This document shows positions 38,978-55,952 of a stretch of 64,000 bases of DNA, piece by piece; positions within the stretch are counted from its first letter, which is position 1, and each line of letters starts with the position of its first letter. A model generated the notes under the pieces. It worked only from the letters and a program-made list of their open reading frames with translations, ran no database searches and was not told the DNA's origin. The position numbers were made by a program, and so were the translations under genes. This DNA is from a virus: the IMG/VR virus record IMGVR_UViG_3300028043_000001, positions 32,001-96,000 of that record; one strand, given 5' to 3'.

Positions 38978-39577
38978 ATGAAACCTTCCACAACGTGGAA
39001 CCGTGGAATAGCTATAATTGGTGCTGAGGGAAGCGGAAAGACCACCCTAATTAATGCACTGGAGAAGAGGATTGAAGTACCTGTTATGAAGGAGTATGTG
39101 CGGGAAGTTATGAGAGAGCTTGGACACTCTTCTCCAGTGCAGTGTGATGACCTTGGACAAATGAAAGCTTTTCAAGACGCCCTTGCGCGGAAAAGGCGTG
39201 GGTTAGAGCTTTCCTTTCAAGGAGCCTTCTTATCAGACCGCTCACCTGTCGACAGCTTTCTATATGCCCTAAGTGGCGTGGCAAGAGACCTTGAATCCCA
39301 AAGTTGGCTAAAGCAATACCACAGTGAGAGCTTGCGCCATACTATCGAGTCATATCAATTGCTAATTCTTGTACCGCACGGCAGGATTGGCGGAGAGATT
39401 GCATTTGATGGCGTTCGCAGCACTTTGTGGTTTAATGCACTTATGATGCACTACCTATTTATTGGTGCCTTGCCAGAGTTTGGAGTTGACCACTACACTG
39501 TAAGATACACTGCTCTTGAAGATCGAGTCGAAGAGGTAATTTACGTTTTATATCAGCGTGGGCTCCTCCAACTGTGA
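38978..39577 (+). CDS. P-loop nucleotide kinase (AAA_28/dNMP kinase-like)
   Basis: GAEGSGKTT, SDRSPVD, DGVR. Confidence 0.75.
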   Translation: MKPSTTWNRGIAIIGAEGSGKTTLINALEKRIEVPVMKEYVREVMRELGHSSPVQCDDLGQMKAFQDALARKRRGLELSFQGAFLSDRSPVDSFLYALSGVARDLESQSWLKQYHSESLRHTIESYQLLILVPHGRIGGEIAFDGVRSTLWFNALMMHYLFIGALPEFGVDHYTVRYTALEDRVEEVIYVLYQRGLLQL

Positions 39578-42075
39578 GAGACCTCCTTTCAAAACCATTC
39601 AGTAAATTAAAGCGCGATGAGGTCCTTATACTTCGTCGTACTGCAGAGGAGAGGTTTGATTTTTTCAATGCGTATTTCCTTGACACTGCCTTACAACCTT
39701 TTCACCAAAAATGGGTTGAGTTCCAATTAGGCAACTCCCGAACTTTAATTCTTGGACCTCGCGCTTGTTGGAAGTGTGCTAGCGCAAACTCTTTAATTCC
39801 TACCACTGAAGGCTTGGCCTACTTCAAGGATTTTCTCCCAGTTCCCACGAAACTTCCTTTTGTTGAATCTGTGGACAATGTTGTGGGATCATGTTTAGGT
39901 CTCACAAAAGCAACCCGTTTATTCTGCAACGGCATCAGCGACGTCTTGGAGATTGTAACCGAAGATGGCTTCACTCTCCAAGTTACCCCCGAACATCGCC
40001 TTCTTGTATGGGATGGTGGACGTTTGGCCTTTAATAGTGCAGGAGCTCTTTCAGTTCACGACCAAATTCTTTTCCGTTGTGACTGGCGTTCATTTGCGGC
40101 AGCTGATATTAACCCCTTCAACGTACCTTCAGAACTTTGGTTTTCTGCTCTTGCTTACTTCTATGTGGCCTATCCCAACTGGCAGCAGATTTGGCAACAA
40201 AAACATCTCCGTAAGACAATCGCACGACCGCTATGGAAGCATTTCAAACATGCTCGTAAGGAGGTTTTACCCAAAGCTTTAGAGGACTTTCTTGATTCCT
40301 TCGGGTTTGGCTCCCATTTAATTCCCAAACCTTTGCGGTGGTGCACTGCAGAATCCGCGCGAGTTATAGCAGAAATGTTTTGGTGGCTCAACCAGTTCAT
40401 CAAGTTTTCCGACGCCCAGGCTTGTGAAGTGCAAAATTGGTTTCTTAACTTGGGACTACCTTTACGTCGAGTAGGGCCTACTCTAACTCATATGAATGCT
40501 AGCCTACGAAACCACTTCCACCAGTTCCTCAGGGGAACTTACGAGTTCAAGTACTCTGAAGAACAGATAATCGAACTTGCCGGGTTAACGTTTTTGGAGG
40601 TAACGTGTTCTTCATTTGTTCCCCCCTTACTAAAATTTAAAGCTTTGCAAATGGGCAGAAAGGGATTCACCAACAAACCTACTCTGGCAACACAATTTGT
40701 TGGAGAGTTTCTGCAGCACGCTCCTAAGTTACGGCGCTTTGCTTTCATGTTTCGATTCCCCTTCTTTCTGCAAAGGGTTGCACACGTAGGTGAGTTTGAA
40801 ACACTCACCCTCGATTTTACAACGACTGAGGGCAACTACCTAATCAACGGCGCAGTAGGTCATAATTCAACAGTATGCGGCAAGAATTATGGAATTTGGC
40901 GTGCTTTAAAAAACCCCAATATTCGAATCGGTATAATTTCTAAATCCTCTTTACTGTCGTCAATGTTTGTAAGTCAGATTAAGCATATTCTTGAGACTAA
41001 CAGTAGAATCAATTACGTATGGAGTGATCTAATTCAGCCTAAAAAGGCCCAGAAGTGGAATAATAGTGAGGTGACCCTAATACGTCCAATGTCCCTAGCA
41101 AACGCGACATTCACTGCTATGGGAGTTGGTACTTCCTTAGCGGGGCATCATTTTGACATCCTTATCTTTGATGATGTGGTCGACACTGACCATCAGATGT
41201 CTCCCTCCTTACGCAAACGGCTATGGGATTGGTTTCGTTTCGTCGCGATGCAGACTCTGAGCGTGGCCGAAGAAACCCAGGCCCACATTATTGGCACGTT
41301 ATATCATCCCGATGATCTCTATCACCATATTATTAGGTTTGAGCGTGAAGGTCGAGGCAGTTGGAGCAGCTTAGTGCAGCCCGCGATAAACGAAGATGGT
41401 ACCTCGTTTTGGGAGGAGATGTTTCCTTTAAGTGCTCTACAAGAAATTGAGGCAACATACGGCCACGACGTTTTCCAGCTTCAGTACCAAAACGACCCCG
41501 ACTTTGGCTCAAGTGGTATTACTTGGGATATGTTTGAGGCCAATTACTACGAGCCCGAAAACATCAACCCCGACCTTTTGGAGGTTGTCATCGGAGTTGA
41601 TCTCGCAGCCCCCGAAGCTGAACGGCGCCACAAGCAAAGTTCTTTTGCAATTGTAGTGGCAGGTTTAGAGAGACAAACCAACAAGATTTTTGTGCTTGAT
41701 ATTTTAAAACGAACGAGTGTTCGGATGGCTGATCAGCGGGCGTTTATTGAAAATTTCTATTCGCGTTATCGACACACGTCAACCATTCAAATTGAAGCCT
41801 ATGCCGTGCAAAGTTACTTTCATGAATATTTGGGAGAATCTGAAATCGTGTTACCCTATGCGAAGGTGCAAACTGGAGGCTCAAAGGAGGCTCGGTTTGA
41901 TCATGTCCTTAACCTTTTAGCCTCGAATCGCCTCTATTTTCGTGCACACCTACACAACGAGCTCCTAGAGGAGATAATCAACTTTCCTAATACAAGCGCC
42001 GATTTAATCGACTCTTTATACCTAGCTATCAAGGGTTTTCATCGAGAACCTAAATTAAGGTTTTTGAATTGGTAG
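39574..42075 (+). CDS. Terminase large subunit, intein-containing
   Basis: PRACWK|S P-loop, GHHFDILIFDD, IGT..HPDD, QYQN, GVDLA, DLID. Confidence 0.9.
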   Translation: MRDLLSKPFSKLKRDEVLILRRTAEERFDFFNAYFLDTALQPFHQKWVEFQLGNSRTLILGPRACWKCASANSLIPTTEGLAYFKDFLPVPTKLPFVESVDNVVGSCLGLTKATRLFCNGISDVLEIVTEDGFTLQVTPEHRLLVWDGGRLAFNSAGALSVHDQILFRCDWRSFAAADINPFNVPSELWFSALAYFYVAYPNWQQIWQQKHLRKTIARPLWKHFKHARKEVLPKALEDFLDSFGFGSHLIPKPLRWCTAESARVIAEMFWWLNQFIKFSDAQACEVQNWFLNLGLPLRRVGPTLTHMNASLRNHFHQFLRGTYEFKYSEEQIIELAGLTFLEVTCSSFVPPLLKFKALQMGRKGFTNKPTLATQFVGEFLQHAPKLRRFAFMFRFPFFLQRVAHVGEFETLTLDFTTTEGNYLINGAVGHNSTVCGKNYGIWRALKNPNIRIGIISKSSLLSSMFVSQIKHILETNSRINYVWSDLIQPKKAQKWNNSEVTLIRPMSLANATFTAMGVGTSLAGHHFDILIFDDVVDTDHQMSPSLRKRLWDWFRFVAMQTLSVAEETQAHIIGTLYHPDDLYHHIIRFEREGRGSWSSLVQPAINEDGTSFWEEMFPLSALQEIEATYGHDVFQLQYQNDPDFGSSGITWDMFEANYYEPENINPDLLEVVIGVDLAAPEAERRHKQSSFAIVVAGLERQTNKIFVLDILKRTSVRMADQRAFIENFYSRYRHTSTIQIEAYAVQSYFHEYLGESEIVLPYAKVQTGGSKEARFDHVLNLLASNRLYFRAHLHNELLEEIINFPNTSADLIDSLYLAIKGFHREPKLRFLNW
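39775..40866 (+). mobile_element. Intein (364 aa) in the TerL Walker A motif
   Basis: Starts C-ASANSLIPT, block B TPEH, ends LDFTT..NYLINGAVGHN followed by Ser. Confidence 0.9.
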
Positions 42076-42077
42076 GC

Positions 42078-42497
42078 CTACGAAAGGGTTAGTATTTCAG
42101 AAGCAGCTTGAAAAATGAAGTCACTAACGTAGCTTGATTTCTGGGCATTGAAGTCAAAGTAGTTAACCAACCACGCCTGGGTTGGATCGGAGCTAACTTT
42201 GTAAATCACCGCGCCTGACGCTGTAATGGTGCTATTAATCCAAGTCGCCTCGTTGGACCATAACCTCGCCTCATTGTTTACCAGATCTATCATCACTGTC
42301 ACCCCAGTTAGTAATTGCCCGCCCGCTGAATAGCCTAAACCGGTCACTTCATTACTTATATTAACATAAGAGTGGTGGCTATCTTTGTCTGGAGTGTACA
42401 GACTTGACACCAACATTACCTTGAACGAGTCCGTAGCAAAATTTATTGCCCCGGTCATCACCTTTTCTTTGAAGATGTTATAGATTGTGTGAGCCAT
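42078..42497 (-). CDS. Conserved phage virion/fibre-associated protein
   Basis: D.FKVMLV...YTPD.D.H...NEV.G.GY.AGG...W..STITA.GAVIY pattern; clean fit between TerL and portal. Confidence 0.75.
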   Translation of the reverse strand: MAHTIYNIFKEKVMTGAINFATDSFKVMLVSSLYTPDKDSHHSYVNISNEVTGLGYSAGGQLLTGVTVMIDLVNNEARLWSNEATWINSTITASGAVIYKVSSDPTQAWLVNYFDFNAQKSSYVSDFIFQAASEILTLS

Positions 42498-42581
42498 CTC
42501 TATCTTATTTTGACCTCTAAGTTACTGGTTATCTCTCGAATCGTTTTAAACAAATTTGTTACAGGGGTCTGTTGGAAGGCA

Positions 42582-43895
42582 ATGGGGAAACTCCTCACTC
42601 TAGTTAAACACTTACAACCAGCTCAAAAGAAGATCGAAGTTCCGCTTTCTGTGGATACTACTCCCAAGGATTCAGAAAGCCGTTCGATGTATTGGCAGTT
42701 TTATCAACCACCTAGGAACTTCCAAACCATGCTTCAAGCCTACATGGTAAACCCTTGGGTTTATTCTGCAATCTACTTGATCGCCAATACTGCTTCAACC
42801 GTCCCCTTCAACATTTACACGAAACAAACGCAGCGACTCGCTGACAAGGATCACTACCTTTGGAAGATTTTTGAGCAGCCCAATCCTCACATGACCTTCA
42901 CAGATCTGCTCGAAGCTACCTTTATTTACATGGAGCTCATAGGCAATGCTTTTTGGGAGATTGTCATGAATGCGGATGGGTTTGTAAAAAATCTTTACCT
43001 TCTCGATCCCTGCAAAATGAGGATCGTTCCTCACCCCGACTACTATGTTATGGCTTATGAGTATCTCGTGGGGGACAAAAAGATTGTCTACAAGCCGTGG
43101 GAGATCGTTCACTTCAAATATTTCAATCCCTCCAATGAATATTGGGGAACTGGGAGCTTGCAACCAGTTTGGGATCAAATAATCTTGGACGGTAAATCCA
43201 CTGACTATAATGCTCGATTTTTCGAGAACGATGCAACGCCTGGAGGCGTAATAACATCACCTAGACCAATTTCCGATTCAGTGTGGAATCAACTCGTTGG
43301 ACGCTGGACAGGACGACATGAAGGCGTGAGAAAATCTCATAAAGTTGCGGTACTCGACGACGGCATGAAATTTGAAACCATTTCATCCACCCCCAAAGAG
43401 GCCTCATTTCCTGAGCTTAAGAAAATCGTTCGAGACACCATTTTTGTCGGCCTTGGCGTGCCTCCGACTTTAGCTGGAGTACCAGACGTAGCAAATTACT
43501 CAACGGCGCGAGTTGCCCAGAGTATTTTTTATGATAGTACAATTGCACCCAAGTTGCGCAAGGTCGCTGACTTAATCGACCAAAAAGTCATTGAGCCCCA
43601 GGATCCTACGTTGATGGGGGCCTTTGACACATCAATTGCCCCCATCAACATTGTCAAGCTGTCGGCGAACTCTCGTATTATTTCTCGTCTGGTGCAAGCA
43701 AAACTTATCACCTCTGATGAAGCAAGAGCCCTTTTGGGTTTGCCTCCTTTAAAAGAGGAGGAGAAACCTCCCAAAGAGAAGCCCAGATTTTCACCTAACA
43801 CTCCAGATGCGATGGGTGAATCTGAATCTACGGGTGAAGGAGAGGAAGAAGGTGATAAGGGGGATAAAGGACTTTTCACTAGGTCTGGGAGATGA
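42582..43895 (+). CDS. HK97-family portal protein
   Basis: PWVYSAI, PNPHMT, GNAFW, EIVHFK, FFENDATPGG, GVPP, NYS; GGAAGG before ATG 42582. Confidence 0.93.
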   Translation: MGKLLTLVKHLQPAQKKIEVPLSVDTTPKDSESRSMYWQFYQPPRNFQTMLQAYMVNPWVYSAIYLIANTASTVPFNIYTKQTQRLADKDHYLWKIFEQPNPHMTFTDLLEATFIYMELIGNAFWEIVMNADGFVKNLYLLDPCKMRIVPHPDYYVMAYEYLVGDKKIVYKPWEIVHFKYFNPSNEYWGTGSLQPVWDQIILDGKSTDYNARFFENDATPGGVITSPRPISDSVWNQLVGRWTGRHEGVRKSHKVAVLDDGMKFETISSTPKEASFPELKKIVRDTIFVGLGVPPTLAGVPDVANYSTARVAQSIFYDSTIAPKLRKVADLIDQKVIEPQDPTLMGAFDTSIAPINIVKLSANSRIISRLVQAKLITSDEARALLGLPPLKEEEKPPKEKPRFSPNTPDAMGESESTGEGEEEGDKGDKGLFTRSGR

Positions 43896-45022
43896 ACTTA
43901 CAGCAACTAAACCCTAAAACCGTTAGAACTATTAATGACCACGAACTGCAAAATTTACACTTCCGGTTACATCAACTGGCTTCACCTTATCTTCGCGAAA
44001 ACGCTTTTCAGAATCCCAAATTCCAGTCCATCGTTCTTAGGCACCGCCTCATCGCCTTTGAGATTATCCGCAGGGGTTTGCGGTTTAAAGTACATGATGA
44101 GCTTGATCGTAAAGCCCTGCCAGAAATTGAGTCGTTTGTAGAACGCTTCTCTAAACTCATCCCCGGAAAGTTATCTGATCTGTCCAAACTGGAGCTCATA
44201 CGTCTGCACAATCAACTACACAGCGTATGGAGTGTCGTGCACGCTCAGCAAGTAACCACCACTCAGCAAGAGCAATTGTTCAACTGGCACCGGATGTTGC
44301 AAAGAGAAATTGAGCGTCGCGACATCGAACATCCGACTAATTGGGATTCCCTAGACCGCCCACTAGGTCAAGCGATTAGCAGCCTCTCTAGGACTCAAGC
44401 TTCAGGGCAGGAGATGGGCGAGTGGCTTTTCATAGAAGACCTCCTGCCCCTCATTCCCGAGGTTTTGCCAATTAAAAAAGGCATCGTTCTCATTGACGAA
44501 GAAAAAGGAAAGGTTTATTTATCCAATATAGGGGGCAGGCAACTTATAAAAGTTATGTATTTCCGGATTCTGCGCCAATTCCCTCGTTCGGAGTGGTCGC
44601 GCTTTAAACCAGTGAGCTTAGATGAATTGGGTGCGGTCGATATTTCGTACGATTTAATTATGAAGAAGCTCGACCCTTTATGGACTGTGCAGCTAAGTTT
44701 TAATTTTGAGGACTTGTGTCTTGTTAAGCCCTTTCTCTTTATTGTGGGAGGCATTGCGACCCAAGGAAGTTCGAAAAACGACATCGACATCCTTCTTCGC
44801 CAGGGCTTGGAAGAGTCCTTCGAGCAGCAAATTTACCTAACGTTTATCAATGCCTTCCCCGAAAAATATCGTCCCCGCTTCACCAGAGTTGAAGATTCGG
44901 GGCTTTCACCTTTTACGAGCTACATTGGCGTCTATTCTTTAGAACTCGTAAAAGGAGATCCCAGTCAAATTGAAGATGATAAAGAGGAGCTAGTAGAGGA
45001 TAATGAAGAGCAGACAGTCTAA
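43892..45022 (+). CDS. Helical-repeat plus Pol-beta-like nucleotidyltransferase protein
   Basis: Two EL..LH..LH...E..RR repeats; VGGIATQGSSKNDIDIL NTase motif. Confidence 0.65.
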   Translation: MNLQQLNPKTVRTINDHELQNLHFRLHQLASPYLRENAFQNPKFQSIVLRHRLIAFEIIRRGLRFKVHDELDRKALPEIESFVERFSKLIPGKLSDLSKLELIRLHNQLHSVWSVVHAQQVTTTQQEQLFNWHRMLQREIERRDIEHPTNWDSLDRPLGQAISSLSRTQASGQEMGEWLFIEDLLPLIPEVLPIKKGIVLIDEEKGKVYLSNIGGRQLIKVMYFRILRQFPRSEWSRFKPVSLDELGAVDISYDLIMKKLDPLWTVQLSFNFEDLCLVKPFLFIVGGIATQGSSKNDIDILLRQGLEESFEQQIYLTFINAFPEKYRPRFTRVEDSGLSPFTSYIGVYSLELVKGDPSQIEDDKEELVEDNEEQTV

Positions 45023-47651
45023 CGTTACCGACGCTCAAAGGCAGGCACGGGCCGACAAGCTGCTTGGGCCCGGCTTTTTCTTTTTTCCTCCGAAAACCTC
45101 CCTTTCTATAGTTTCCTACCGTAAAGCTGAAACATTTTCAGTAGAGCAGACCCTTGAATATCTGCAGCGGTGGTCTACGGCGCAGCCTGATTTAAAGATC
45201 AGCGTGCAGCTAAAATATGATGGCATTTCATGTTACTTACATCGTACAGCCGACGAGGATTTTTTTGTCTTCACTGATGATGGTACTGATGTGACCGACA
45301 GAGTGCCTCATTTAATAGAGAAAGCAAAGGAGCAGCTACCCAAAACGGACTACATCGTATTGGGCGAGATTGAAAAGTGGATCACCCAAGGTAATAAAAG
45401 AGTTCACCAAGGTCGCGAGTATGTTGCCGGGGAAATCCATGCCGCGGGACCCCCGAAGGATCGAGCCTATGTTTGGAATGTGTACGATTTACTTTGGTTT
45501 AATGGTAAAGATTTACACAACCTTGAATACCAACAACGGTTCGAAACCCTACAGAAGGAATTTCATTTCGATCAGTCCCTTCTCACCAGCATGCAGCCTG
45601 GATTTAATTTAGCTCCTAATTCAATTTGTGAGACTGACGAGGAGATACGCAAGGCCCTGAAAGCCATGGTCGCTTTTGAGTTCTCTGAGGGAGCCATGGT
45701 TAAGAAGTGGAATGGCTTTAAATTTGAGCTTGACGGTCGCACCAATGACGTCCTAAAATTTAAAAAATACGCTGAAGCTCATCTGTGGGTGGTCGACAAA
45801 CGCACTATCAGTGGTGCCGAGAAAACTTTTCAATATAAGGTAGCCATCGAGGTCCTACCCTCGGAGATGGAAGATGTTGATGAATCTGCAGTTATCAGTT
45901 TTCGGCGTCGTAAGGCGATGATCGTAGCAAAAACTTTCAACACTAATGTGGTTGCTAATGTTGGTGATATTTTGACCGTGCAATTCCACAACGTTTTTGC
46001 TACACGAACTGAAAGCGGCAAAATAAAACTAACTTTGTATGAGCCGAAAGTTTATGAAAATCGGACGCTCCGTGGTGTCTCTGAAGACCCTGACACTGTG
46101 ACTACCTTAATTAAGATTGGCCGCGATGCTCAACTATTCCGCTATAAACACCACGACGATGAGTTTCTGCCCTTCGAGTTGGTAAAACAGGTTGGCATCT
46201 TCCAACAATACCCAGCTGAAGGTAGAATGTATCCTTTCATTATTCATAACCACTGGCGTGGCAAGTCGGTGCATGCTGATTTGCGGCTTTCTCATGTTAA
46301 CCGCCAGTACTTAATTGGCTACACTCTGGACGTTCAAGTACCCGATATCGTCCGCGACCCCGTACTTAATATGGACAGAGCTCGCGAGATGACCAAAAAG
46401 GACGAGCTGTGGAAATTCAATGCCTTTGATGGAACTTTCAAATCCCGACAAACTCGTGTGGGCATGAAAAAAGCTACCTCCGTTTTGGTGCAACTAAAAG
46501 CTCCGGAGCCTAATGAGTGGCTCAGTTTTGAGGGCGTGTCCGAAAGGGGCTCTGTTGGTTCAACAAGGGACTACCCCGGAGTCTTTTTGATTGTTGCTAA
46601 AGGTAACGTCGAGTATGGCTTCAGGTCAGGATATTTTCACGAATATTGGTTTCATTGTGAGCAGTGGCCGAACGGTGGGATGCGCCTTTTGTTCAGGGAA
46701 CTTGCCTCAGATATTACTGCAAGCATCCCAGTTAGCAAGTTTTTGCAGTGGGCCTTTGATGTCGACAACCCTATTACTGATTTCCAATACGGTGATCACT
46801 CCATTGTTTGTGATTTAGGCGAGGTGCTGTTGCCTGAACAGCTGCAGCTCGACTTTGGGGATTCTTTGTCACTCGCCCTAGCACCAGCTGAAAAACCCGA
46901 GTTGCGCACTCCGACTATGTGGATGCTTATTAAACCTAACACCGACGAACCTTACGTCTTATCGCAGCGCGCTGCCACCAAAGGAAGGATGCCCCCATTT
47001 GGCATTTCTGCTCTTCCCAAAACTATTAAAGATCAAATCCCCGCTGAGTTTGCCTATTGGACAATAAAAGAATCAAAAAAGGCCCTTGAAGTGAGAAACT
47101 CATTAATTGCAGCCATTAAGAAGAAGAAGGTGAAACTTGATTTTACCGTGTTTAAAAGCTTTAAATCGACAGGGGAAGAGCAAGCAATTGAAACCTCAGT
47201 TGAAGTTGAGCGTGAATTTATTTTAAATCGTCGCACTTGGCGAGGACCAATTGTAGTCAGACTAGGCTATAGTGGTGAATTATACGACTTGTGGATTGCA
47301 ACAGGCGAGGGAGCTACGCTGTTCACTTTTAGTGACGATCCTCGTGAGGCTACTGAGATAACTGGTACTGCCGAGAAGTTTAGTGATAAGATTTTAATGG
47401 CAGCCGTTGGTGAGCTGCTTCCTGGGTCACGACTCAACCCCAACAAAAGGATTCCAGTTAAAGTAGTGAGATTAGAAAAAGGAAAACTTTTGCTGTTTGT
47501 TGATGACCCCAACCTCAAAAAGTTTCAGGTTAAATCAAAAAACTGGCAAGGTGTTTACTTACTCGAGCAAGATGAAGACTCGAAAATCTGGACTCTAAGG
47601 GTTGCAGAAGCTGCTATACAACCCGTCGATTCTCAAGGAGTGGGTAGATAG
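45003..47651 (+). CDS. ATP-dependent DNA ligase fused to LigD phosphoesterase-like domain(s)
   Basis: KYDG, LGE, YDLLW, EGAMVK, KFK; FIIHNHWRGKSVHADLRL. Confidence 0.8.
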   Translation: MKSRQSNVTDAQRQARADKLLGPGFFFFPPKTSLSIVSYRKAETFSVEQTLEYLQRWSTAQPDLKISVQLKYDGISCYLHRTADEDFFVFTDDGTDVTDRVPHLIEKAKEQLPKTDYIVLGEIEKWITQGNKRVHQGREYVAGEIHAAGPPKDRAYVWNVYDLLWFNGKDLHNLEYQQRFETLQKEFHFDQSLLTSMQPGFNLAPNSICETDEEIRKALKAMVAFEFSEGAMVKKWNGFKFELDGRTNDVLKFKKYAEAHLWVVDKRTISGAEKTFQYKVAIEVLPSEMEDVDESAVISFRRRKAMIVAKTFNTNVVANVGDILTVQFHNVFATRTESGKIKLTLYEPKVYENRTLRGVSEDPDTVTTLIKIGRDAQLFRYKHHDDEFLPFELVKQVGIFQQYPAEGRMYPFIIHNHWRGKSVHADLRLSHVNRQYLIGYTLDVQVPDIVRDPVLNMDRAREMTKKDELWKFNAFDGTFKSRQTRVGMKKATSVLVQLKAPEPNEWLSFEGVSERGSVGSTRDYPGVFLIVAKGNVEYGFRSGYFHEYWFHCEQWPNGGMRLLFRELASDITASIPVSKFLQWAFDVDNPITDFQYGDHSIVCDLGEVLLPEQLQLDFGDSLSLALAPAEKPELRTPTMWMLIKPNTDEPYVLSQRAATKGRMPPFGISALPKTIKDQIPAEFAYWTIKESKKALEVRNSLIAAIKKKKVKLDFTVFKSFKSTGEEQAIETSVEVEREFILNRRTWRGPIVVRLGYSGELYDLWIATGEGATLFTFSDDPREATEITGTAEKFSDKILMAAVGELLPGSRLNPNKRIPVKVVRLEKGKLLLFVDDPNLKKFQVKSKNWQGVYLLEQDEDSKIWTLRVAEAAIQPVDSQGVGR

Positions 47652-47654: not shown

Positions 47655-47969
47655 TTGAGTGAAGGCCGCGTCCCCGTTTCGTTTGAGAAACTCACAATCT
47701 CTACATCAGCAGTGATGCTCACTTCCAGTTTGCTTCATCCCACCCCTGGGCAAAGCGGCGCAGGTAATGCAGCTTGCTTAGCGTTCATGACCGTTGAGGG
47801 TGGTAGCATTCGATTTCGCGTTGATGGAGGTTCCCCAACTACCGCAGATGGACATTTAGTGCTCGACGGCGGCAGCGTTGAAATCGAGACAATTCAGGCA
47901 CTAGAGAAGTTTAAAGCAATTAGGGCGGCGAACAAAAATGCCACCCTTTTTGTGACGTACTTCTTTTAA
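47655..47969 (+). CDS. Hypothetical virion-module protein
   Basis: IRFRVDGGSPT..DGH; genomic context. Confidence 0.55.
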   Translation: MSEGRVPVSFEKLTISTSAVMLTSSLLHPTPGQSGAGNAACLAFMTVEGGSIRFRVDGGSPTTADGHLVLDGGSVEIETIQALEKFKAIRAANKNATLFVTYFF

Positions 47970-47977
47970 GAGGGTTT

Positions 47978-48358
47978 ATGGCAATTCGAATCTACAATCC
48001 CCCATCGTACGAAGTGGAATTTACACACACTATGTACGTACCTCCTGGCACGACGGTGAGCGAAAGCATTCCAGGTCACGTTAATCGGGGCATTGCTTCA
48101 GCACTTGATGTTGAAGAAGTTGGAGGTGAAGTTTCGGGCAATTATGATTTTGACCTTTACCACGCAAACACTTTTGTAGAAGATGATTTAGCCTATAGAG
48201 CTTTGAATATCGATCCTGCGGCAGCCTATGTTGATCGGCTGCCTTTTCAAGTTAAGGACAAAGACGAAGCCTCTGAAGCTCATATTCGTATTCGGAACCT
48301 AGATGCAACAAAAGGAGCTACATTCAACATCACAATGAGAACGGAGAAGTTTAGATAA
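47978..48358 (+). CDS. Hypothetical virion-module protein
   Basis: Beta-rich; MAI start like its neighbours. Confidence 0.55.
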   Translation: MAIRIYNPPSYEVEFTHTMYVPPGTTVSESIPGHVNRGIASALDVEEVGGEVSGNYDFDLYHANTFVEDDLAYRALNIDPAAAYVDRLPFQVKDKDEASEAHIRIRNLDATKGATFNITMRTEKFR

Positions 48359-49407
48359 TGGCAATATTGCGGGCTCATTCATTTGGTGCTAGCTTCGGAT
48401 TTGGATACAACCCTCCTGAGCCGGGGATCGACTATTATGGTGGTGGCAGCAATTGGCTATCTACAGTAGGCGGTAGGTTGGAGTTTGGGGTGAAAGTCGC
48501 AGCGGGAAACTCGCCTTGGGAGAAGTACTGGATACAATCCTCTTTCGCCGCAAAAAGTGAAATTTATGTGCAGATATGTGAGAAAACTGGCGTAGGAGTC
48601 AGTAATGATTATAGGTGGATTACTTTTCGTGCAGGCACTACTGAGTTGGTTGTTGCTAAATTAAAAACCGATGAGTCAATAGATTTTTACCGTGGGGATC
48701 CCGATGTGGGAGGTGTCTTGCTAGGTAGTACTAGCATTGATACTCTCCGGATTGATGGAGTATTTGCCTATTATGAGTTTCGTGTTAAAATTGATGGCTC
48801 TGCTGGAGTTGTTAAAATGAGAAAGGACGGCTTCGAAGTTTTTAGTTTCACTGGCAACACAAAACCTGGGGCAGAAACAACTATCGACAATATTAGAACG
48901 TACAACACCCCCCCAGGTATGATATATAGCGATTTCATCATTAACGACACTTTGGGGTCCTACAACAATTCTTGGCCAGGTGGTGCACATGTAGAATTTA
49001 TAAAGCCGGATGCTGCAGGTGCCGTTACGGAATGGCTGCCTTCATCAGGCTCTAATTATCAATGCGTTGATGAATTTCTTCCCTCCGCATCCGATTATGT
49101 TACCACAGATATTCCTAATGTTGTTGACGTTTATAATCTTGCGTCTATTGATGGCAGCGCCATTGTAGTGAGTGCAATCATCCCTATGTACCACATCCAC
49201 TATGATGGTGATCCTCAAACCAAGTATTATCAGAGAGTTTTACGTGCAGGTACGACAAACTATACTAGTGCCTCGAGGCTAGCACCTGCCTCGACAATGA
49301 CATTGGATAGCTGGGAGGTATTAGAAACTAATCCTGCAACTGGTGCACCTTTCACAGTAAGTGAAATTAACAATTTACAGTTGGGGCTTAAGGCAGTGAC
49401 GTCTTAA
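48358..49407 (+). CDS. Putative virion lectin-like protein, paralog 1
   Basis: Beta-sandwich N-terminus; shared C-domain W.P...N..CVDE. Confidence 0.65.
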   Translation: MAILRAHSFGASFGFGYNPPEPGIDYYGGGSNWLSTVGGRLEFGVKVAAGNSPWEKYWIQSSFAAKSEIYVQICEKTGVGVSNDYRWITFRAGTTELVVAKLKTDESIDFYRGDPDVGGVLLGSTSIDTLRIDGVFAYYEFRVKIDGSAGVVKMRKDGFEVFSFTGNTKPGAETTIDNIRTYNTPPGMIYSDFIINDTLGSYNNSWPGGAHVEFIKPDAAGAVTEWLPSSGSNYQCVDEFLPSASDYVTTDIPNVVDVYNLASIDGSAIVVSAIIPMYHIHYDGDPQTKYYQRVLRAGTTNYTSASRLAPASTMTLDSWEVLETNPATGAPFTVSEINNLQLGLKAVTS

Positions 49408-49421
49408 AGGGAGAGTAACAA

Positions 49422-50438
49422 ATGGCATTATTAGTATGCGCTGGAGCAGAAAGTTCTGTATATGAGGTGAGTTGGGGTGGTGTCTGCGTACAAAGCTCTA
49501 CGCGGGCTCGATCTGGGACATACTCATTTCGTTTAAACGGCGGATATGCTTCAGGATCTGGTATGAATCCCAACTGGATTGGCTTAAATTTTGTTGCAGG
49601 CTCTACTATTTATTTTCAAGTCGCGATTTATGTCACGGAAGTTTTTGGAGGTACAACGAATAATAGAGTTTTTATATTTCGGTCAGGTAGCGTTTTTCAA
49701 ATTGTAATGTCGGTGACCGGCAATTCTACATTTAAACTTTGGCGAGGTGACTGTTGGTCTCCTGGTGTGGAAATTGCCTCGGTATCAGCAGGGTTCGCTC
49801 TTAATTCTTGGAACCTTTTTGAAGGATACCTCTATGTTGCGGACAGCAATGGAATTATTCAAATCAAGAAAGATGGGGTAATGCTTTTCGATTTTGTTGG
49901 CGATACACAATACGATACCAATACGATTGATTCTTTTGTTGTAGGGGTGACGTCGTCTGGGGGGACCGATTACTCATGGTACGATGACTTAATCATAAAC
50001 AACAACCAAGGTAGCTACTTTAACAGTTGGCCAGGAGGAGTTCGGATTCACGCCTTAAGGCCTTCTGGTGTAGGTAACTACTCTCAATGGACACCCGCGG
50101 GCACCTCTCCTAACTGGGATTGTGTCGATGAAACTCCAGTTAGTAGCGCAGAGTACGTCCATACTGGGGTAGCTGGACAAAAAGATAGTTATCAAATGTC
50201 CAATTGTCCAACTGGGTTACATAGAGTCAGAGCAGTGGTACCTCAATTCTGGGGTGAAGGGGGCCAAGCCATTAAAAGATTATTACGCATAAGTAGCACT
50301 GACTACTTGGGGGCCACTGTTAACTTAACATCAAGCTTTGGTAAGGTTGAAGAAATCCACTATGTTTCACCCGCAACCAGCAGTGCTTGGACGCTTTCTG
50401 AGGTTGATGGACTTGAGAGTGGCATGGAGAACGTGTAG
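49422..50438 (+). CDS. Putative virion lectin-like protein, paralog 2
   Basis: GNYSQWTPAG..NW.CVDETPVSS shared with paralog 3. Confidence 0.65.
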   Translation: MALLVCAGAESSVYEVSWGGVCVQSSTRARSGTYSFRLNGGYASGSGMNPNWIGLNFVAGSTIYFQVAIYVTEVFGGTTNNRVFIFRSGSVFQIVMSVTGNSTFKLWRGDCWSPGVEIASVSAGFALNSWNLFEGYLYVADSNGIIQIKKDGVMLFDFVGDTQYDTNTIDSFVVGVTSSGGTDYSWYDDLIINNNQGSYFNSWPGGVRIHALRPSGVGNYSQWTPAGTSPNWDCVDETPVSSAEYVHTGVAGQKDSYQMSNCPTGLHRVRAVVPQFWGEGGQAIKRLLRISSTDYLGATVNLTSSFGKVEEIHYVSPATSSAWTLSEVDGLESGMENV

Positions 50439-50455
50439 TAGGGGAGGATTAGAGG

Positions 50456-51469
50456 ATGGCATTATTAGCATTCGCTGGAGCAGAGGATGGTCTTTTAGAA
50501 GTCTTGATCTCAGGAGATGTGACCCAAAACTCAGGCCAGGCAAGAACTGGAACATACTGCTTTAGGGTAAAGGGGATGTCTCCTACCGAATCTATCTTAT
50601 CGAATTCCTTCACCCTTAACTTTCCTGAGCGGAGTGAGTTTTTTTGGCAGGCTGCAACAAGGGTAAGTAGCACAGCCACATATGGAGGATACAATCCATA
50701 TCACATAGGGTGGTGTAAAGGCAATACGTTTTTGGGGTGCCTAATTACTGCAGGAACGTTAGCCTCTATGTTTGTTTGCCGCGGTGACAACTCCGGCACA
50801 CTACTAGGAAGCATTAATGTTGGTATGCCTACTAACAGCTGGTTGCTACTTGAGGGGCATGTAGTAATTCATAACACTACGGGTTTAGTTAAGGTTTGGG
50901 CTAATGGCATTCTTGTTTTCAACTATAGTGGCGATACTCAACCTGGGTCTGACACAGGAGTAGATAATCTTCTTTTCTCGGGCACACCCACCACCTCAGG
51001 TTGGCAGTACTGGGATGATATGATAGTTGGAGATGTCCAGGGCAGTTACTTTAATAGTCAACTTGGGGGCCTAAAAATTCACCGCCTAGCTCCTACTGGC
51101 ATAGGTAACTACTCCCAATGGACACCTGCTGGTTCAACTCTTAACTGGGCTTGTGTCGATGAAACTCCAGTTAGTAGTGATGACTATGTGAAAGGCGCTG
51201 CGTCAGGTAACAAGGATTCCTATGCAATGGCTGATTGTCCATCGAATGTTTATGACGTGCAAGCAGTAGTCGCGCGCTATTGGGCCCAGGGAGGAGGTGG
51301 AATAAAAAGACTGCTGCGGATTGGGAGCACCGACTACTTGGGAACTACTATCAATGTTTCTACTTCCCTCACGTACAATGACGATATTATGTATGTTAGC
51401 CCCGCCACCTCCAATCCTTTTACCGTAAGTGAGATAAATAGCCTTGAGAGCGGCATGGAAAGGCAGTAA
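50456..51469 (+). CDS. Putative virion lectin-like protein, paralog 3
   Basis: Same architecture as paralogs 1 and 2. Confidence 0.65.
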   Translation: MALLAFAGAEDGLLEVLISGDVTQNSGQARTGTYCFRVKGMSPTESILSNSFTLNFPERSEFFWQAATRVSSTATYGGYNPYHIGWCKGNTFLGCLITAGTLASMFVCRGDNSGTLLGSINVGMPTNSWLLLEGHVVIHNTTGLVKVWANGILVFNYSGDTQPGSDTGVDNLLFSGTPTTSGWQYWDDMIVGDVQGSYFNSQLGGLKIHRLAPTGIGNYSQWTPAGSTLNWACVDETPVSSDDYVKGAASGNKDSYAMADCPSNVYDVQAVVARYWAQGGGGIKRLLRIGSTDYLGTTINVSTSLTYNDDIMYVSPATSNPFTVSEINSLESGMERQ

Positions 51470-53341
51470 ATGGCCACCACTTCTTGGCAAAACCCAACGA
51501 CGGCCGCTACTATTGATCGTGATGGCAAGGCGTCGTGGGCTTCAGTCGAACGCGCACTAGTTTCTGATAATCAGCGAACATACTGCGATGTAGCAACTAG
51601 CACCTATGGCGATTGGCTCAGACTTACCGGTTTCAACCTTCTCAACTTAGTTCCCCACGAAGCCACCATCGATGGCATCGAAGTTGAGATTGAGGGCTAC
51701 GCAGGGATAGCCAACAAGCTTAAAGACTCGGCTCTCTACCTACGCACAACTGCGGGCCAAACGAGTAACAACGGTGCCCTTCCAGATTATTATGACACCA
51801 GTGAAACTACCTACTTCCGGGGGGGTGCTTCCGATACTTGGGGTACTACTTGGGCGAAAGAACATTTTAACAGCGATTTTGGCATCGATATTTCCATTCA
51901 AAACGATGATACATTAACACGGCGTTTTAACATTGACTGTGTAAGAATAAGAGTTCACTTCACCGCTACAGGTGATACATATGTTGATGGCCACAGTTTA
52001 CAACTGTTTAATCGCAACGATGGTATTTCAGGTCACAGTTTACAACTGTTTAATCGCAACGATGGTATTTCAGGTCACAGTTTAAACCTCTTCTATAAGC
52101 CAAGAAGTTCTGGCTTCGAGTTTGACCCCCGAATAATTGAGTACTGGCGGTTTGAAAACAACCTCAATGCAGAGAAGAGCGGTAATACTTTAACTGCATC
52201 TGCGGGCGGCGTTGGCTATAGCTCTAGCGCTCCCCTTGAGGGTGCCTTTACCCTCGATTTGGAATTTGATAATGACCAGTTCGCCTACCGAACCGATACT
52301 GACCTTAGCACCGGCTTTCCTTTTAAAAGCGGTGATACCAACAAGAAAGCCACTTTTTGTTGTTGGGTAACTCCCGAAAGTAGCGGCGCTTGGCGGTGCA
52401 TCTGGTCAAAAACTAATTACTTTTGGGGTGGTGGTAACAACTGTACTCATGCTAGTGTCGACTACGGTACCTTAAAAATTGGTTGGGGTTCTGCTACTAG
52501 TAATACTGACTATAATACGGGCATCACTTTAAATGCGGGAGTCTCCTACCATGTTGCTGTTGTAATTAATGGAGTTTATCCAGGGTCAATCTATGTAAGA
52601 GTTTACCGCGGCGATAATGGTACTATAAGCGAGCATAGCGTAGGACTTTTGGACGCCCTTAATATTTGCAGCAGACCATTTAGAGTTGGGGCCTTTGCTG
52701 ATCGTGATGCTGATAACACCTGGGATGGCAGGATTGATGAGTTAGTAGTAGCCAATGCTTTACTTTCTCCCTATGAAATTGACCAGATTCGAGCTGGCAC
52801 TTACGAGTATCAGCCTGGTGTTCATGGACATGCACTTCAAACTTTACTTGATGCTCCAGGTGTTCATGGTCATGCACTTCAAGCTCTACTCGATGCTCCT
52901 GGTGTCCATGGACATGCACTTCAAATTTTATATGATAACTATGGCATTAAACTGGATAGAATCGGGACATCAGTTGTTTATAAGGTCGACAAAGTTTTTC
53001 TCTCGCGTATTGGCACTACAGTTGTTTGGTCAGACTCTATTAATGTAACGGTTGAACTAGCTGAAGCCGTGCAGCTACTAGCCTCACCCAGTTCTCCTAA
53101 CTTGTTAACTGGGTCTTCAGTTAGTGTTGACGAAGCTTTACAGTTACTATCTACCCTCAACACGCCCTCACTTTCACTAGGCTCGACAACCGAGGTGGCC
53201 GAATTGCAATTGTTATCAGCATTATATAATCCTTCCTTCGTAGGTACTCCTACTGGAGAACTCCGAGTTTTCCCAGTACCCCTACCCGAAACGGTTTGGC
53301 AAAGCCAAGCAGGGAAAAGAATTTTTCCAATGAAACCCTAG
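51470..53341 (+). CDS. Fibre-like protein with LamG/ConA domain and 14-aa repeats
   Basis: YWRFE...FCCWV...YHVAVV...WDGRIDEL..LS..EI. Confidence 0.72.
   Translation: MATTSWQNPTTAATIDRDGKASWASVERALVSDNQRTYCDVATSTYGDWLRLTGFNLLNLVPHEATIDGIEVEIEGYAGIANKLKDSALYLRTTAGQTSNNGALPDYYDTSETTYFRGGASDTWGTTWAKEHFNSDFGIDISIQNDDTLTRRFNIDCVRIRVHFTATGDTYVDGHSLQLFNRNDGISGHSLQLFNRNDGISGHSLNLFYKPRSSGFEFDPRIIEYWRFENNLNAEKSGNTLTASAGGVGYSSSAPLEGAFTLDLEFDNDQFAYRTDTDLSTGFPFKSGDTNKKATFCCWVTPESSGAWRCIWSKTNYFWGGGNNCTHASVDYGTLKIGWGSATSNTDYNTGITLNAGVSYHVAVVINGVYPGSIYVRVYRGDNGTISEHSVGLLDALNICSRPFRVGAFADRDADNTWDGRIDELVVANALLSPYEIDQIRAGTYEYQPGVHGHALQTLLDAPGVHGHALQALLDAPGVHGHALQILYDNYGIKLDRIGTSVVYKVDKVFLSRIGTTVVWSDSINVTVELAEAVQLLASPSSPNLLTGSSVSVDEALQLLSTLNTPSLSLGSTTEVAELQLLSALYNPSFVGTPTGELRVFPVPLPETVWQSQAGKRIFPMKP
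51992..52084 (+). repeat. 42-bp tandem repeat, two exact copies plus a partial
   Basis: CACAGTTTACAACTGTTTAATCGCAACGATGGTATTTCAGGT. Confidence 0.95.
52814..52939 (+). repeat. 42-bp tandem repeat, three diverged copies
   Basis: PGVHGHALQxLxDx three times, mostly synonymous changes. Confidence 0.92.
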
Positions 53342-53436: not shown

Positions 53437-54576
53437 ATGCCAGAGTTAGCAGTGAAAATACAAGAAGACGGCTTTAGATTCGAGCAGGCCCTTTTTGACA
53501 TCGAGAAGAAAGCGGAAAAGATCGAGCAAGAGTCTGGCGAGCTGAAACGAATCGTCACCGGTTTTGCGGCTGTTGCGGATGTCATTGATTCACAGTTTGA
53601 GGTAATTACACGCGAGGCTTTAGAAGGAGCGTCAAAAGACCTTCTTCAATATACCACAGTACTGTATAATCATGACCCCAACCGTCCGATTGGTAAGGTT
53701 CTGGAAGCTCAACCTAAGGGTGACGGACTGTTCGTCAAAGTTCTGATTTCTGCCTCAGAGGATGAAATTTGGAACAAGATCACAGAGGGCATTATTTCCA
53801 AATTTAGCTTCCGGGGTTCCGTCACTGACTTCGAAGAGAAGTATGACAAAGGGCTACAAAAATATATCACTGTCATTAAAGGGTTCCGAATTTTCGAAGT
53901 TTCTTTGGTATCAGTACCTGCTAACCCACATGCTAAGACTCTACACTATTATCTCTCAAAAGCGTTGGAATCTGTTGAGAAACCAACAACCGAAAAGGAA
54001 GTTGAGCTTCCTCAACCAAAAGAAACAAAAGGAGGGCTTTTAAAAGCTATGGATAAGGAAAAGGCCAAAATGATCGCTGACTTAGTCGACAAGCTTATGG
54101 CGGCCCTCCAAGACATGCCACACAAAGTGGACGAGCGCCTTCTCGTGATTTGCCGGAAAATTAAATCCGAAATTTTGAGGGCAGCTGCTGGCGAGGATCA
54201 GCCGGCGTATCCCGAACCCTCTGCTGAGGAAAAGATAATCGAAGGCTATGATCCTATCGCTGAGGGTTTCAAAAACCGCCTTGCCTCGTTTGAGGAGAAG
54301 GTGGCTAGCCTTGAGAAGCGGTTGGACGAGATTAAGCCGGCAATCGAAGAGATGTTGGTTGAAGGCATCAAAAGTGTAGCCGAGACTTTGGTCACTGACA
54401 AAATCGGGGACATTGAAAAAGAACTTGGCTCCCAAGCCGAAGTGCTGTCTAGCTTCATTGAGTTGCTAGATGCGCTTCGTCCACAACTTGGACTTCCTGT
54501 TCAGGAACAGGAGACTAATTTGCCATCAGCAAAGTCTGAAAAGTCTGAGGAGATTAAAGACGGAGGTGAATCCTAA
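53437..54576 (+). CDS. HK97 prohead protease with C-terminal scaffold-like coiled coil
   Basis: YNHD...IGK, FSFRG, EVSLVSVPANP; GGAGGAGG SD. Confidence 0.92.
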   Translation: MPELAVKIQEDGFRFEQALFDIEKKAEKIEQESGELKRIVTGFAAVADVIDSQFEVITREALEGASKDLLQYTTVLYNHDPNRPIGKVLEAQPKGDGLFVKVLISASEDEIWNKITEGIISKFSFRGSVTDFEEKYDKGLQKYITVIKGFRIFEVSLVSVPANPHAKTLHYYLSKALESVEKPTTEKEVELPQPKETKGGLLKAMDKEKAKMIADLVDKLMAALQDMPHKVDERLLVICRKIKSEILRAAAGEDQPAYPEPSAEEKIIEGYDPIAEGFKNRLASFEEKVASLEKRLDEIKPAIEEMLVEGIKSVAETLVTDKIGDIEKELGSQAEVLSSFIELLDALRPQLGLPVQEQETNLPSAKSEKSEEIKDGGES

Positions 54577-55952
54577 TGCCTAACGAGCATATTGAAAAGG
54601 CCAAAGAACTTTTGGCTAAAATGAATGCTGACATTAACAGGCAGCAGGAAGATAAGGATGTCAAAAAGCTCCTCGGCGATGTCCTAGACGAACTCAAAAA
54701 GGCAGGCGATGGCGAGCGTAAAGGCCGTTTTGACACACAAGATGCCCTCGAGGTTATTAAAACCACCCCCAATCCGGGGGCGGGGCTTCAAAAAATGGTG
54801 GAGGTTTCAACCTCTGATGGTCTTATCAAAGACTTTCAGCGGCTTAACGACGACATCTTTCTGTTGTCCCAGATGCTGAAAAAGGATCCCCGTGAGCTCA
54901 AAGTTTACCGGCAGCTCATGGAGCACCCCCTTGTTCAGAAAACCCAAGACTCTTTTGGTGGAGCTGGGCCTACCCTTTCAGGTCCGAGCACTCATTATGG
55001 TGCTGACTGGATTCCGATTGGGTTTTCAGCAGATTTGATCGACATCGTACGCATGCAGCTCAAAGTTGCTGCTTTGCATCGCCGTATTAACATGCCCAAT
55101 CCGACTTACAAGCTACCTATTGGCGGCACTGATGTGACTGCTTACCTAGTAGGTGAAACCATTACGTCGGGCTCTCCCGAAGGGAGACCGACTGCCTCGC
55201 TGCCAACCTCTGGTACTGGGGTAACTTTGGACGCCAAAAAGATCGGTGCGCTGGTATATTTCTCTGAAGAAATTACCGAAGATAGCATCATCCCCGTCCT
55301 TCCCTACCTACGGGATAACATGTCGCGCGCTATGGCTAATGCCCAAGAACATGCGGTAATCAATGGACAGAAAACTGGCACAATTGATACGGGGTACTCT
55401 ATTGCCTCAACCGACGTTCGGAAAGCTTGGGATGGCTATAGGTACAATTGTCAGTCAGCGGCCAAAGCCGATTTTGGCACATGGTCCACAACTACTGCCA
55501 CTGGCCTTCTGCGCGGCTTGCGAGCGAAAATGGGTAAATACGGCGTTGATCCCAAAAACCTAGTTTGGGTTACCAGTATTGCAGGCTATCATCAGATGCT
55601 TGGTAACGCCGATCTTTTAACCCTCGATAAATACGGCCCCAATGCGACCTTGCTTAGTGGTGAGCTTGGGAAGTTTGACAACATCCCAATTATCGTCAGC
55701 GAGTATGTCGCCGAGAATTTGAATGCCCTCGGCGTCTATGATGGTGTTACCACGACCAAAACCTTGGTTGCGTTGGTTTACACTCCTGCGTGGCTGTTTG
55801 GAGATCGTCGGTCTATCACTGTTAAGACTAAGGACAATCCTGAGGATGACAACCATCTTCTGGTCTGTCACCAGCGGCTCGATTTCAAACCCCTGTATAA
55901 TGTGTCAACAGAGTACATTATCGCACTGGGGTACAATCTTGCCAAACTCTAA
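54576..55952 (+). CDS. HK97-fold major capsid protein
   Basis: WIP.GFS..LI, AKKIGAL..SEE.TEDS, INGQ, QRLDF; follows the protease. Confidence 0.9.
   Translation: MPNEHIEKAKELLAKMNADINRQQEDKDVKKLLGDVLDELKKAGDGERKGRFDTQDALEVIKTTPNPGAGLQKMVEVSTSDGLIKDFQRLNDDIFLLSQMLKKDPRELKVYRQLMEHPLVQKTQDSFGGAGPTLSGPSTHYGADWIPIGFSADLIDIVRMQLKVAALHRRINMPNPTYKLPIGGTDVTAYLVGETITSGSPEGRPTASLPTSGTGVTLDAKKIGALVYFSEEITEDSIIPVLPYLRDNMSRAMANAQEHAVINGQKTGTIDTGYSIASTDVRKAWDGYRYNCQSAAKADFGTWSTTTATGLLRGLRAKMGKYGVDPKNLVWVTSIAGYHQMLGNADLLTLDKYGPNATLLSGELGKFDNIPIIVSEYVAENLNALGVYDGVTTTKTLVALVYTPAWLFGDRRSITVKTKDNPEDDNHLLVCHQRLDFKPLYNVSTEYIIALGYNLAKL

Follow-up and report, generated by a model that had tools for sequence, protein, structure and literature searches.

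We analyzed 64,000 nucleotides (nt) of viral DNA, positions 32,001 to 96,000 of IMG/VR virus record IMGVR_UViG_3300028043_000001 (this whole stretch is hereafter the window), and observed that the two overlapping genes directly after the portal gene, ORF A and ORF B (ORF, open reading frame), are best explained as the two halves of one conserved, head-module-encoded enzyme that, judging from its domain content, would repair DNA ends. ORF B contains a DNA ligase followed by two barrels of the LigD 3′-phosphoesterase (PE) superfamily, and ORF A ends in a domain that is probably a minimal nucleotidyltransferase (NTase) of the Pol-beta superfamily. The source record comprises 116,436 bases and is approximately 75% complete. 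An earlier note, made from the letters of the window alone, had described two overlapping genes at this place as a candidate packaged, LigD-analogous repair system; the two genes were recovered and share 20 nt. The features of the module are listed with the evidence for each in brackets.

43892..45022, + strand: ORF A, 376 amino acids (ORF list; 27 homologues with at least 52% identity; AlphaFold model, pLDDT 75.6)
43892..44329, + strand: ORF A residues 1-146, two helical-hairpin repeats (model helices)
44174-44347, + strand: second hairpin of ORF A, approximately residues 95-152, Pyr_excise-like (PF03013 in relatives)
44432..44692, + strand: ORF A residues 181-267, unassigned alpha/beta domain, restricted to close relatives (model secondary structure)
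44699..44956, + strand: ORF A residues 270-355, putative minimal Pol-beta-superfamily NTase with G286-G287...D297-x-D299 and D335 (conserved motif)
45003..47651, + strand: ORF B, 882 amino acids (ORF list; 30 homologues; homologue alignment)
45195..45764, + strand: ORF B residues 65-254, adenylation domain of an ATP-dependent DNA ligase, with K71 in KYDG (PF01068, E 9.5e-18)
45765..46082, + strand: ORF B residues 255-360, conserved region where the OB domain of a ligase is expected (Y346, P348, E352, N353, and R354 invariant)
46215..46712, + strand: ORF B residues 405-570, PE unit 1, homologue of the LigD-type 3′-phosphoesterase with an insert of approximately 50 residues (hhalign against ORFs collected by PF13298)
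46728..47189, + strand: ORF B residues 576-729, middle region, conserved in relatives (no similarity to PE, no structural match)
47208..47612, + strand: ORF B residues 736-870, PE unit 2, canonical PE beta-barrel lacking the His/His ligands and keeping D762 (Foldseek on the model)

The ligase and the phosphoesterase barrels of ORF B

The identity of the ligase is, from its sequence, certain. Its adenylation domain matched PF01068 with 65 bits (cut-off, 26.2 bits; 68.9 bits in a six-frame search of the genome) and TIGR00574 at E 1.2e-17, and the profile reached human DNA ligase 1 chains at E 9e-9. In the 21 aligned ORF B homologues, K71, D73, G74, E122, E124, E229, G230, A231, K234, K252, and K255 were invariant, and D162 and K254 were conserved in at least 90%. 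We take these residues to be ligase motifs I (KxDG), III, IIIa, IV, and V, the same set that had been read in the second gene beforehand. The adenylation domain was trailed, in the relatives as well as here, by a conserved block (residues 255-399) with no Pfam match. When ORF A and fragments of ORF B were scanned directly against the families, everything beyond PF01068 was at chance level, and the ORF B profile retrieved ligases alone, and no PE chain, from the PDB sequences.

The C-terminal part of ORF B carries tandem PE-superfamily barrels and is a divergent relative of the LigD PE rather than a canonical one. Profiles of ORF B with diverse relatives were compared by hhalign with 17 canonical PE ORFs collected by PF13298; the E-values are those of single pairwise comparisons. 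PE unit 1 aligned in register with canonical PE over 110 columns (97.5%, E 5e-12), PE unit 2 aligned with canonical PE at 93.2% (E 3e-7), and the two units aligned with each other at 96.5% (E 9e-10). The controls, namely the middle region and the OB-like region, scored 0.2% and 0.15% against PE. With close homologues only, the similarity between the two units was not significant (8.7%); it became significant once the diverse giant ORFs described below were added. One relative, P0065, matched PF13298 itself with 21.8 bits, below the cut-off of 31.1.

Residues 385-882 of ORF B were folded from a 22-sequence alignment (pLDDT 80.2), and PE unit 1 was modelled as beta strands with pLDDT 80-95. All five Foldseek matches at E ≤ 1e-3 were LigD 3′-phosphoesterases (3p4h, 3n9b chains A and B, 3n9d, and 3p43). 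The aligned part, model residues 352-486, corresponds to ORF B residues 736-870, i.e., PE unit 2, and the eight-stranded PE beta-barrel fold is present in ORF B. No match at E ≤ 1e-3 was found for the same model among viral structures (BFVD). A second, degenerate PE-like unit had been placed near position 47217; it proved to be a real barrel, starting at residue 739 and lacking the His/His pair, but it is this unit, and not the first, that matches solved PE structures, PE unit 1 being tied to PE through profile comparison alone.

The stretch FIIHNHWRGKSVHADLRL, noticed earlier for its resemblance to the LigD PE motif, occupies ORF B residues 412-429, and within it H417, R419, H424, D426, and R428 are invariant. 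H417, H424, D426, and R428 aligned with the canonical His, His, Asp, and Arg and were conserved in every diverse sequence with a residue at the position (19-20 sequences). As far as the available text of PMC3300020 describes PaePE, His42, His48, and Asp50 are its Mn ligands, and His42, His48, Asp50, Arg52, His84, and Tyr88 are all required for both of its activities. H417, H424, D426, and R428 correspond to His42, His48, Asp50, and Arg52; of those catalytic positions, PE unit 2 retains D762 only. The residues present suggest that PE unit 1 is probably catalytic, with an altered general-acid position, and that PE unit 2 is very likely noncatalytic.

ORF A and the fused relatives

The model of ORF A showed a pair of helical hairpins (residues 4-64 and 78-146) and, after a disordered linker, an alpha/beta half (residues 181-355) and then an acidic tail. 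The claim that the first gene has two helical repeats received modest support (repeat 1 vs. repeat 2, hhalign 72.9%, E 3e-5). PF03013 matched 23 of the 26 ORF A family members at E ≤ 0.1 (best E 6.3e-7) and the giant relatives at E 2e-6 to 3e-7; ORF A's own match to this T4 endonuclease V-like family was below threshold (16.5 bits vs. a cut-off of 23). ORF A gave no direct match to a family, a PHROG, or a PDB sequence, and the phmmer rows against the PDB sequences were noise.

Pol-beta NTases carry the signature hG[GS]x9-13Dh[DE]h, which also occurs in ORF A residues 270-355. The sequence there is V-G286-G287-x9-D297-I-D299-I, of which V-G-G-x9-D-I-D was invariant in 26 ORF A homologues. In 151 domain instances (147 of the best 150 representatives), the signature positions were occupied by G in 150, by G or S in 148, by D in 147, and by D or E in 150. 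The candidate third carboxylate was an acidic residue in 80% of the 151 instances at the D335 column and in 71% at a later column. A profile of this C-terminal domain (hereafter the C-domain) retrieved 819 representative proteins at E ≤ 1e-3 and 404 at E ≤ 1e-10 from a library of 1.84 billion. Against the PDB sequences, it gave 25 rows, 23 of which were DNA polymerase beta and two URT1; the best of these (E 0.063) was sub-threshold, and the Pol beta alignments were in register, with GG and DxD lying over the GS and DxD of Pol beta. Foldseek weakly listed two minimal NTases (MNT; E 0.66 and 1.3) for the ORF A model, and the ESM Atlas leads, below the bar of that resource, were NTP_transf_2/Polbeta clusters. 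The NTase motif (GG...DID) claimed at the outset is upheld by its near-invariance, but no fold search confirmed the domain. We consider it probable, given the conserved motif, that the C-domain is a minimal Pol-beta-superfamily NTase. A degenerate copy of that domain had been suspected immediately before it; residues 177-268 showed no similarity to the following domain (hhalign 0.13%), and this candidate was rejected.

In distant relatives, the two parts of the module are joined. The ORF A profile matched the N-terminal part of ligase-bearing giant ORFs in nine distant loci (L015-L020, L024, L027, and L030), and the C-domain profile added L022, L025, L026, L028, L029, L031, and ANMV-1, an archaeal virus, with C-domain and ligase in every case on one polypeptide. 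Giant multidomain ORFs occurred in 17 distant loci, and the polypeptides that join the C-domain to the domains of ORF B reach approximately 1900 amino acids. Their usual order was C-domain, ligase, OB-like region, PE unit 1, middle region, and PE unit 2, and the ligase domain started 22-101 residues past the C-domain in 12 of the 20 ligase-bearing representatives. In ANMV-1, a protein of 866 amino acids annotated as ATP-dependent DNA ligase holds the C-domain at residues 40-133, the ligase at 180-362, PE unit 1 at 486-622, and PE unit 2 at 734-865. Because the domains of ORF A and ORF B are fused in distant relatives, the boundary between the two genes falls in the linker of what is elsewhere a single polypeptide. 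A programmed frameshift joining ORF A and ORF B was considered and rejected: the close relatives keep the split, with differing overlaps (4 nt in L002 vs. 20 nt here).

The giant relatives also contained a Dam methylase, a metallo-beta-lactamase fold, radical SAM, DUF6884, a 2H phosphoesterase, a C5 methylase, and Tad3, an inhibitor of Thoeris. P0108 (2190 amino acids) combines the C-domain of ORF A, inteins, Tad3 (the type I Thoeris inhibitor), the ligase, and an XkdF protease, a set that ties the family to known anti-defence domains. The order of domains was permuted in L027 (5316-9551), where the C-domain is followed by PE unit 1, the middle region, PE unit 2, the ligase, the OB-like region, and an XkdF protease. 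In L020 (4613-10357; record G106, 100% complete with direct terminal repeats), the post-portal protein of 1914 amino acids has two ATP-dependent ligase domains, ORF A-like parts, and both PE units. Two contigs assigned to metagenome-assembled genomes also carry close homologues of the module, namely L033 (Brevinema, 90 kb, with the same portal-A-B layout) and L034 (Thermoplasmata, 4 kb); both contigs are probably of viral origin, binned together with cellular sequences, and are unreliable for host assignment.

Gene context and possible function

The module lies among head genes. The gene order, on the + strand unless stated, is TerS-like, trypsin-like protease, AAA_28 kinase-like, large terminase, a small minus-strand gene, portal, ORF A, ORF B, six ORFs, prohead protease, and major capsid protein.

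42489..43895, + strand: portal protein gene (PF04860, E 2.2e-61; phrog_12, E 5.5e-77)
47655..53341, + strand: six inserted ORFs of 104, 126, 349, 338, 337, and 623 amino acids (matches to phrog_6368/2448 and Laminin_G_3)
53437..54576, + strand: prohead protease (PF04586, E 3.7e-12)
54576..55952, + strand: major capsid protein (PF05065, E 1.8e-13)

The portal stop codon overlaps the ORF A start codon in an ATGA junction. A terminator scan found a single strong terminator-like hairpin in the operon, after the capsid gene (55978-56002), and no strong terminator between the portal gene and position 55978; promoter-like sites occurred at chance frequency (25 observed vs. 23.0 ± 4.8 expected). With their overlapping start and stop codons and a terminator only after the capsid gene, ORF A and ORF B look like members of a late head operon. 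This arrangement indicates translational coupling of both with the portal gene, the operon extending to the capsid gene.

The two genes had been described as sitting between the portal and the prohead protease. They do adjoin the portal, but in the window the protease is not the next gene, since six ORFs intervene. A survey for synteny of portal, NTase, ligase, and protease had been proposed; in all 10 of the closest loci (L002-L011; 48-58% identity to ORF B), the protease came directly after the ORF B homologue, with the capsid gene next. Because the protease adjoins ORF B in all of these loci and the six ORFs (47655-53341) lack homologues throughout the 31 related loci, the six ORFs read as an insertion into an ancestral portal-A-B-protease-capsid order.

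The link of the module to head genes is strongly supported by the gene neighborhoods of its relatives. Portals were counted in 30 of the 31 related loci, comprising 13 closer ones (L002-L014) and 17 distant ones scanned with Pfam (L018 was left out). A recognizable portal was found upstream in 22 of the 30, and four more loci were cut by contig ends. A homologue of the window's portal preceded the module in 11 of the 13 closer loci, the other two beginning at a contig end. Among the 17 distant loci, a portal (PF04860 or PF06074) lay one to three genes upstream in 11, two were cut by contig ends, and no recognized portal was found upstream in four; of these four, L031 has MuF and L032 terminase upstream. 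Three different Pfam families of portal precede the module, and the ligase identity across loci is 21-58%. Linkage of the homologues to head genes had been set as a point on which the original proposal could fall; in addition to the portals, it appeared as fusions to XkdF-type proteases and as MuF neighbors, and the proposal survives it. A C-terminal XkdF-type (PF14550) protease domain was fused in L025, L027, and L030 and in seven of 61 representatives, and that of L025 shared 37-50% identity with gene products of cultured Bacillus, Lactococcus, and Enterococcus phages that are annotated as prohead or head maturation proteases. MuF genes lay between the portal and the ligase protein in L025 and L031. 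The same genomic contexts are used in the literature to predict packaging in the capsid and injection, in the available text of PMC5512222 and PMC9503650; such a prediction from gene context is a heuristic and not a demonstration. Head-module encoding and many unrelated domains in one polypeptide, the marks of polyvalent head-packaged proteins, were both found in the family, which in the window is split into two genes.

In ANMV-1 (L001, KP703175), the gene before the ligase fusion (1913-3193) is annotated as a "MutT-like phage hydrolase". It matched PF06381, a family of portals (E 3.2e-22), the listing up to E 0.01 contained no Nudix match, and the annotation looks wrong. A relationship between ORF A and this gene was considered and rejected, the two showing no similarity and the gene being a portal.

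A mechanism consistent with these data would be as follows. The ORF A and ORF B proteins would be made late and built into the prohead, in the relatives perhaps by way of the fused protease-type domain, and would be released together with the DNA. PE unit 1 would then strip blocking 3′-phosphates or 3′-ribonucleotides, and the ligase would seal the nick or break. The NTase domain may extend a 3′ end by a nucleotide or act on another substrate, and PE unit 2 and the Pyr_excise-like helical repeats would hold or bind the DNA end. Breaks in the incoming genome could in this way be mended before phage genes are expressed. We regard the complete chain (a module made late, packaged, ejected, and repairing ends) as evenly balanced between true and false. 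The broader proposition, that many tailed viruses of bacteria and archaea pack a LigD-like repair machine (Pol-beta-type adder, 3′-phosphoesterase, and ligase) that is ejected with the genome as particle-borne counter-defence, is put forward more tentatively, at somewhat less than even standing. If it is true, incoming DNA would be healed after attack by host nucleases, or circularized without host ligase, ahead of viral expression.

Several observations weigh against this mechanism. The NTase fold lacks support from fold searches (Foldseek E 0.66-1.3; the VIA lists were filled by helical hairpins), and the Pfam NTase families matched none of 61 relatives and neither ORF A nor any of its 26 homologues; a templated polymerase is unlikely from a palm-only domain of approximately 100 residues. 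In 21 sequences, the position of PaePE His84 was Glu in 12, Gln in eight, and Ile in one, and that of Tyr88 was Trp in all 21. PF13298 gave no match to ORF B fragments at E up to 10. Because this family is unmatched and the two catalytic positions are replaced, the phosphoesterase chemistry of ORF B may be altered or lost. Restriction cuts leave ligatable ends for which a PE step is unneeded. Neither ORF A nor ORF B showed a MuF or protease domain of its own in the Pfam scan. No cultured phage among 50,697 records carries the module, and only the metagenomic ANMV-1 matched beyond single domains. Finally, ORF B was the sole PF01068 match in the 116-kb record (approximately 75% complete), in which no NAD-dependent ligase was found either, and because it is the only ligase found it may also, or solely, serve replication.

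The last point can be carried further: ORF B could be the general ligase of phage replication and recombination, fitted with an accessory domain for end healing, ORF A its accessory subunit, and the post-portal position functionally meaningless. Among the genes of the phage are those for PolA, a helicase, a RecA/UvsX-like protein, SSB, and SbcCD-like proteins, so a replicative ligase is expected. However, the incompleteness of the record leaves room for another ligase, the post-portal position is kept across three portal families at ligase identities as low as 21%, and the fusions to prohead protease are hard to explain. In addition, two of four related records have a second, small ligase gene (a frame of 283 amino acids in G107, which is 100% complete, and one of 428 amino acids in G105), which argues that in the relatives the module is not simply the replication ligase; in G106, two ligase domains lie within one giant ORF. 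We consider this explanation improbable.

A late-acting role without ejection deserves more weight, although it too is less probable than delivery with the genome. ORF A and ORF B could act in the cytoplasm as a packaging-associated quality-control ligase that, beside the terminase and portal, repairs nicks and damaged ends of concatemers by healing and sealing, and thereby limits packaging to intact DNA. Co-transcription and translational coupling with the portal and capsid genes, the conserved portal adjacency, and the lack of a recognizable capsid-targeting domain in ORF A and ORF B would all fit, and Zachary and Black are said to have found in 1981 that T4 requires its DNA ligase for encapsidation. 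The C-terminal prohead-protease-type fusions and the company of Dam methylase, Tad3, and MuF are better accounted for by proteins delivered from inside the capsid.

The substrate could also be RNA or another molecule, such as tRNAs cut by host anticodon nucleases or, for the NTase, a host protein or signal. Domains of the 2H/LigT phosphoesterase and Rv2179c-like exoribonuclease types occur in the polypeptides of relatives, the ligase domains of some relatives weakly match PF09414 RNA_ligase, and in the available text of PMC5512222 the minimal Pol-beta NTases of polyvalent proteins are assigned protein-modifying roles. This reading is nevertheless very unlikely: the ligase matches best to DNA ligase families (PF01068, TIGR00574, and DNA ligase 1 chains), and the partner domains are directed at DNA (Dam and C5 methylases and Pyr_excise-like repeats).

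Other genes of the window were recorded as follows. The 5.7-kb insert (47655-53341) contains three paralogues of approximately 340 amino acids (phrog_6368/2448, function unknown) and a protein of 623 amino acids in which a Laminin_G_3/ConA-like lectin domain is accompanied by short internal repeats; a role in capsid decoration or in fibres is possible for these genes. The large terminase (TerL; 39574-42075, 833 amino acids) gave terminase matches confined to residues 432-824 and a weak intein-splicing match at residues 112-222, and it looks as if it carries an inserted intein; in the close relatives, TerL is likewise 832-841 amino acids long. The segment 20915-34467 encodes a FolE2-type GTP cyclohydrolase, QueC, radical SAM, a thymidylate-synthase-like protein, and several glycosyltransferases and methyltransferases, which suggests DNA hypermodification and fits 7-deazaguanine and/or glycosylated bases. 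A family A DNA polymerase at 9224-11653 has an N-terminal domain of the uracil-DNA-glycosylase superfamily (PF03167, E 6.5e-18), and a papain-family cysteine protease gene and an outer-membrane beta-barrel (OMP_b-brl) gene occur at 16018-18207, in the early or middle region.

Comparison with known systems

LigD-type 3′-phosphoesterases are known as cellular end-joining enzymes, and polyvalent head-packaged proteins are known chiefly for methylases, ADP-ribosyltransferases, nucleases, and peptidases. Full-text searches of the literature, whose coverage excluded the supplements of PMC5512222, brought up no account of a ligase and PE module within phage head operons; the one paper that came nearest concerned the IS-excision enhancer protein of E. 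coli. A conserved, portal-tied ligase-PE-NTase module would, if confirmed, add repair of the incoming genome to the strategies of early infection. The module occurs in viruses, one archaeal virus among them, whose portals belong to at least three families. For biochemistry, it would offer a natural tandem of active and degenerate PE barrels and a new ligase-associated NTase family (819 representative clusters).

When the module was compared with LigD (POL-PE-LIG) of bacterial nonhomologous end joining (NHEJ), the likeness lay in the union, within one system, of an ATP-dependent ligase, a 3′-end-healing barrel of the PE superfamily, and a candidate nucleotide-adding domain, with PE unit 1 keeping the equivalents of His42, His48, Asp50, and Arg52. 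The differences were several. The candidate adder in ORF A is a Pol-beta-like palm of approximately 100 residues, whereas Pfam found no AEP-type POL domain in ORF A or ORF B. No match to Ku (PF02735) was found in the 116-kb record (approximately 75% complete), in line with its absence from the window as first noted. ORF B has two PE barrels, the second without metal ligands; the His84 position is changed to Glu or Gln and that of Tyr88 to Trp, PF13298 is unmatched, and the ligase is not specifically LigD-like (TIGR00574 outscored TIGR02776/02779). ORF A and ORF B are, moreover, viral and lie within a head-gene operon. The earlier description of the system as LigD-analogous holds for the ligase and the ligands of PE unit 1 but not for the AEP-type POL, Ku, or His84, and the structural check suggested with it, by AlphaFold and Foldseek, bore out PE unit 2 (five LigD PE structures) and not the NTase.

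The stand-alone archaeal PE enzymes (3p43, 3p4h, and the Methanocella NHEJ PE 5dmp) differ from the viral barrels, to which they are 13-17% identical, in that PE unit 2 lacks the catalytic histidines and the viral barrels are embedded in a ligase fusion. Viral sets that heal and seal DNA are also known, namely Pnkp with the ligases of T4, and Pol X, ligase, and AP-endonuclease of African swine fever virus, whose repair enzymes are reported to have been detected in particles. As in the present case, the virus supplies its own 3′-end healing and ligation; the families that perform the healing step are unrelated, and there is no portal-linked polyvalent architecture.

The closest class is that of the polyvalent proteins of phages and conjugative elements (Iyer et al. 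2017, PMC5512222). In the text available for that paper, the word LigD is absent and ligase occurs three times, in the context of RNA ligases, and its Pol-beta NTases are domains of firmicute conjugative elements fused to ArdC-N. As with the polyvalent proteins described there, the relatives of ORF A and ORF B unite disparate enzymes in one polypeptide of 1000-2200 amino acids and are encoded beside terminase, portal, and MuF genes, the context from which capsid packaging is predicted; the difference is that the window's protein is divided between two coupled genes and lacks both MuF and zincin peptidase domains. On its domains and gene order, the module appears LigD-like in its working, yet it is not LigD, and it fits the class of phage polyvalent proteins.

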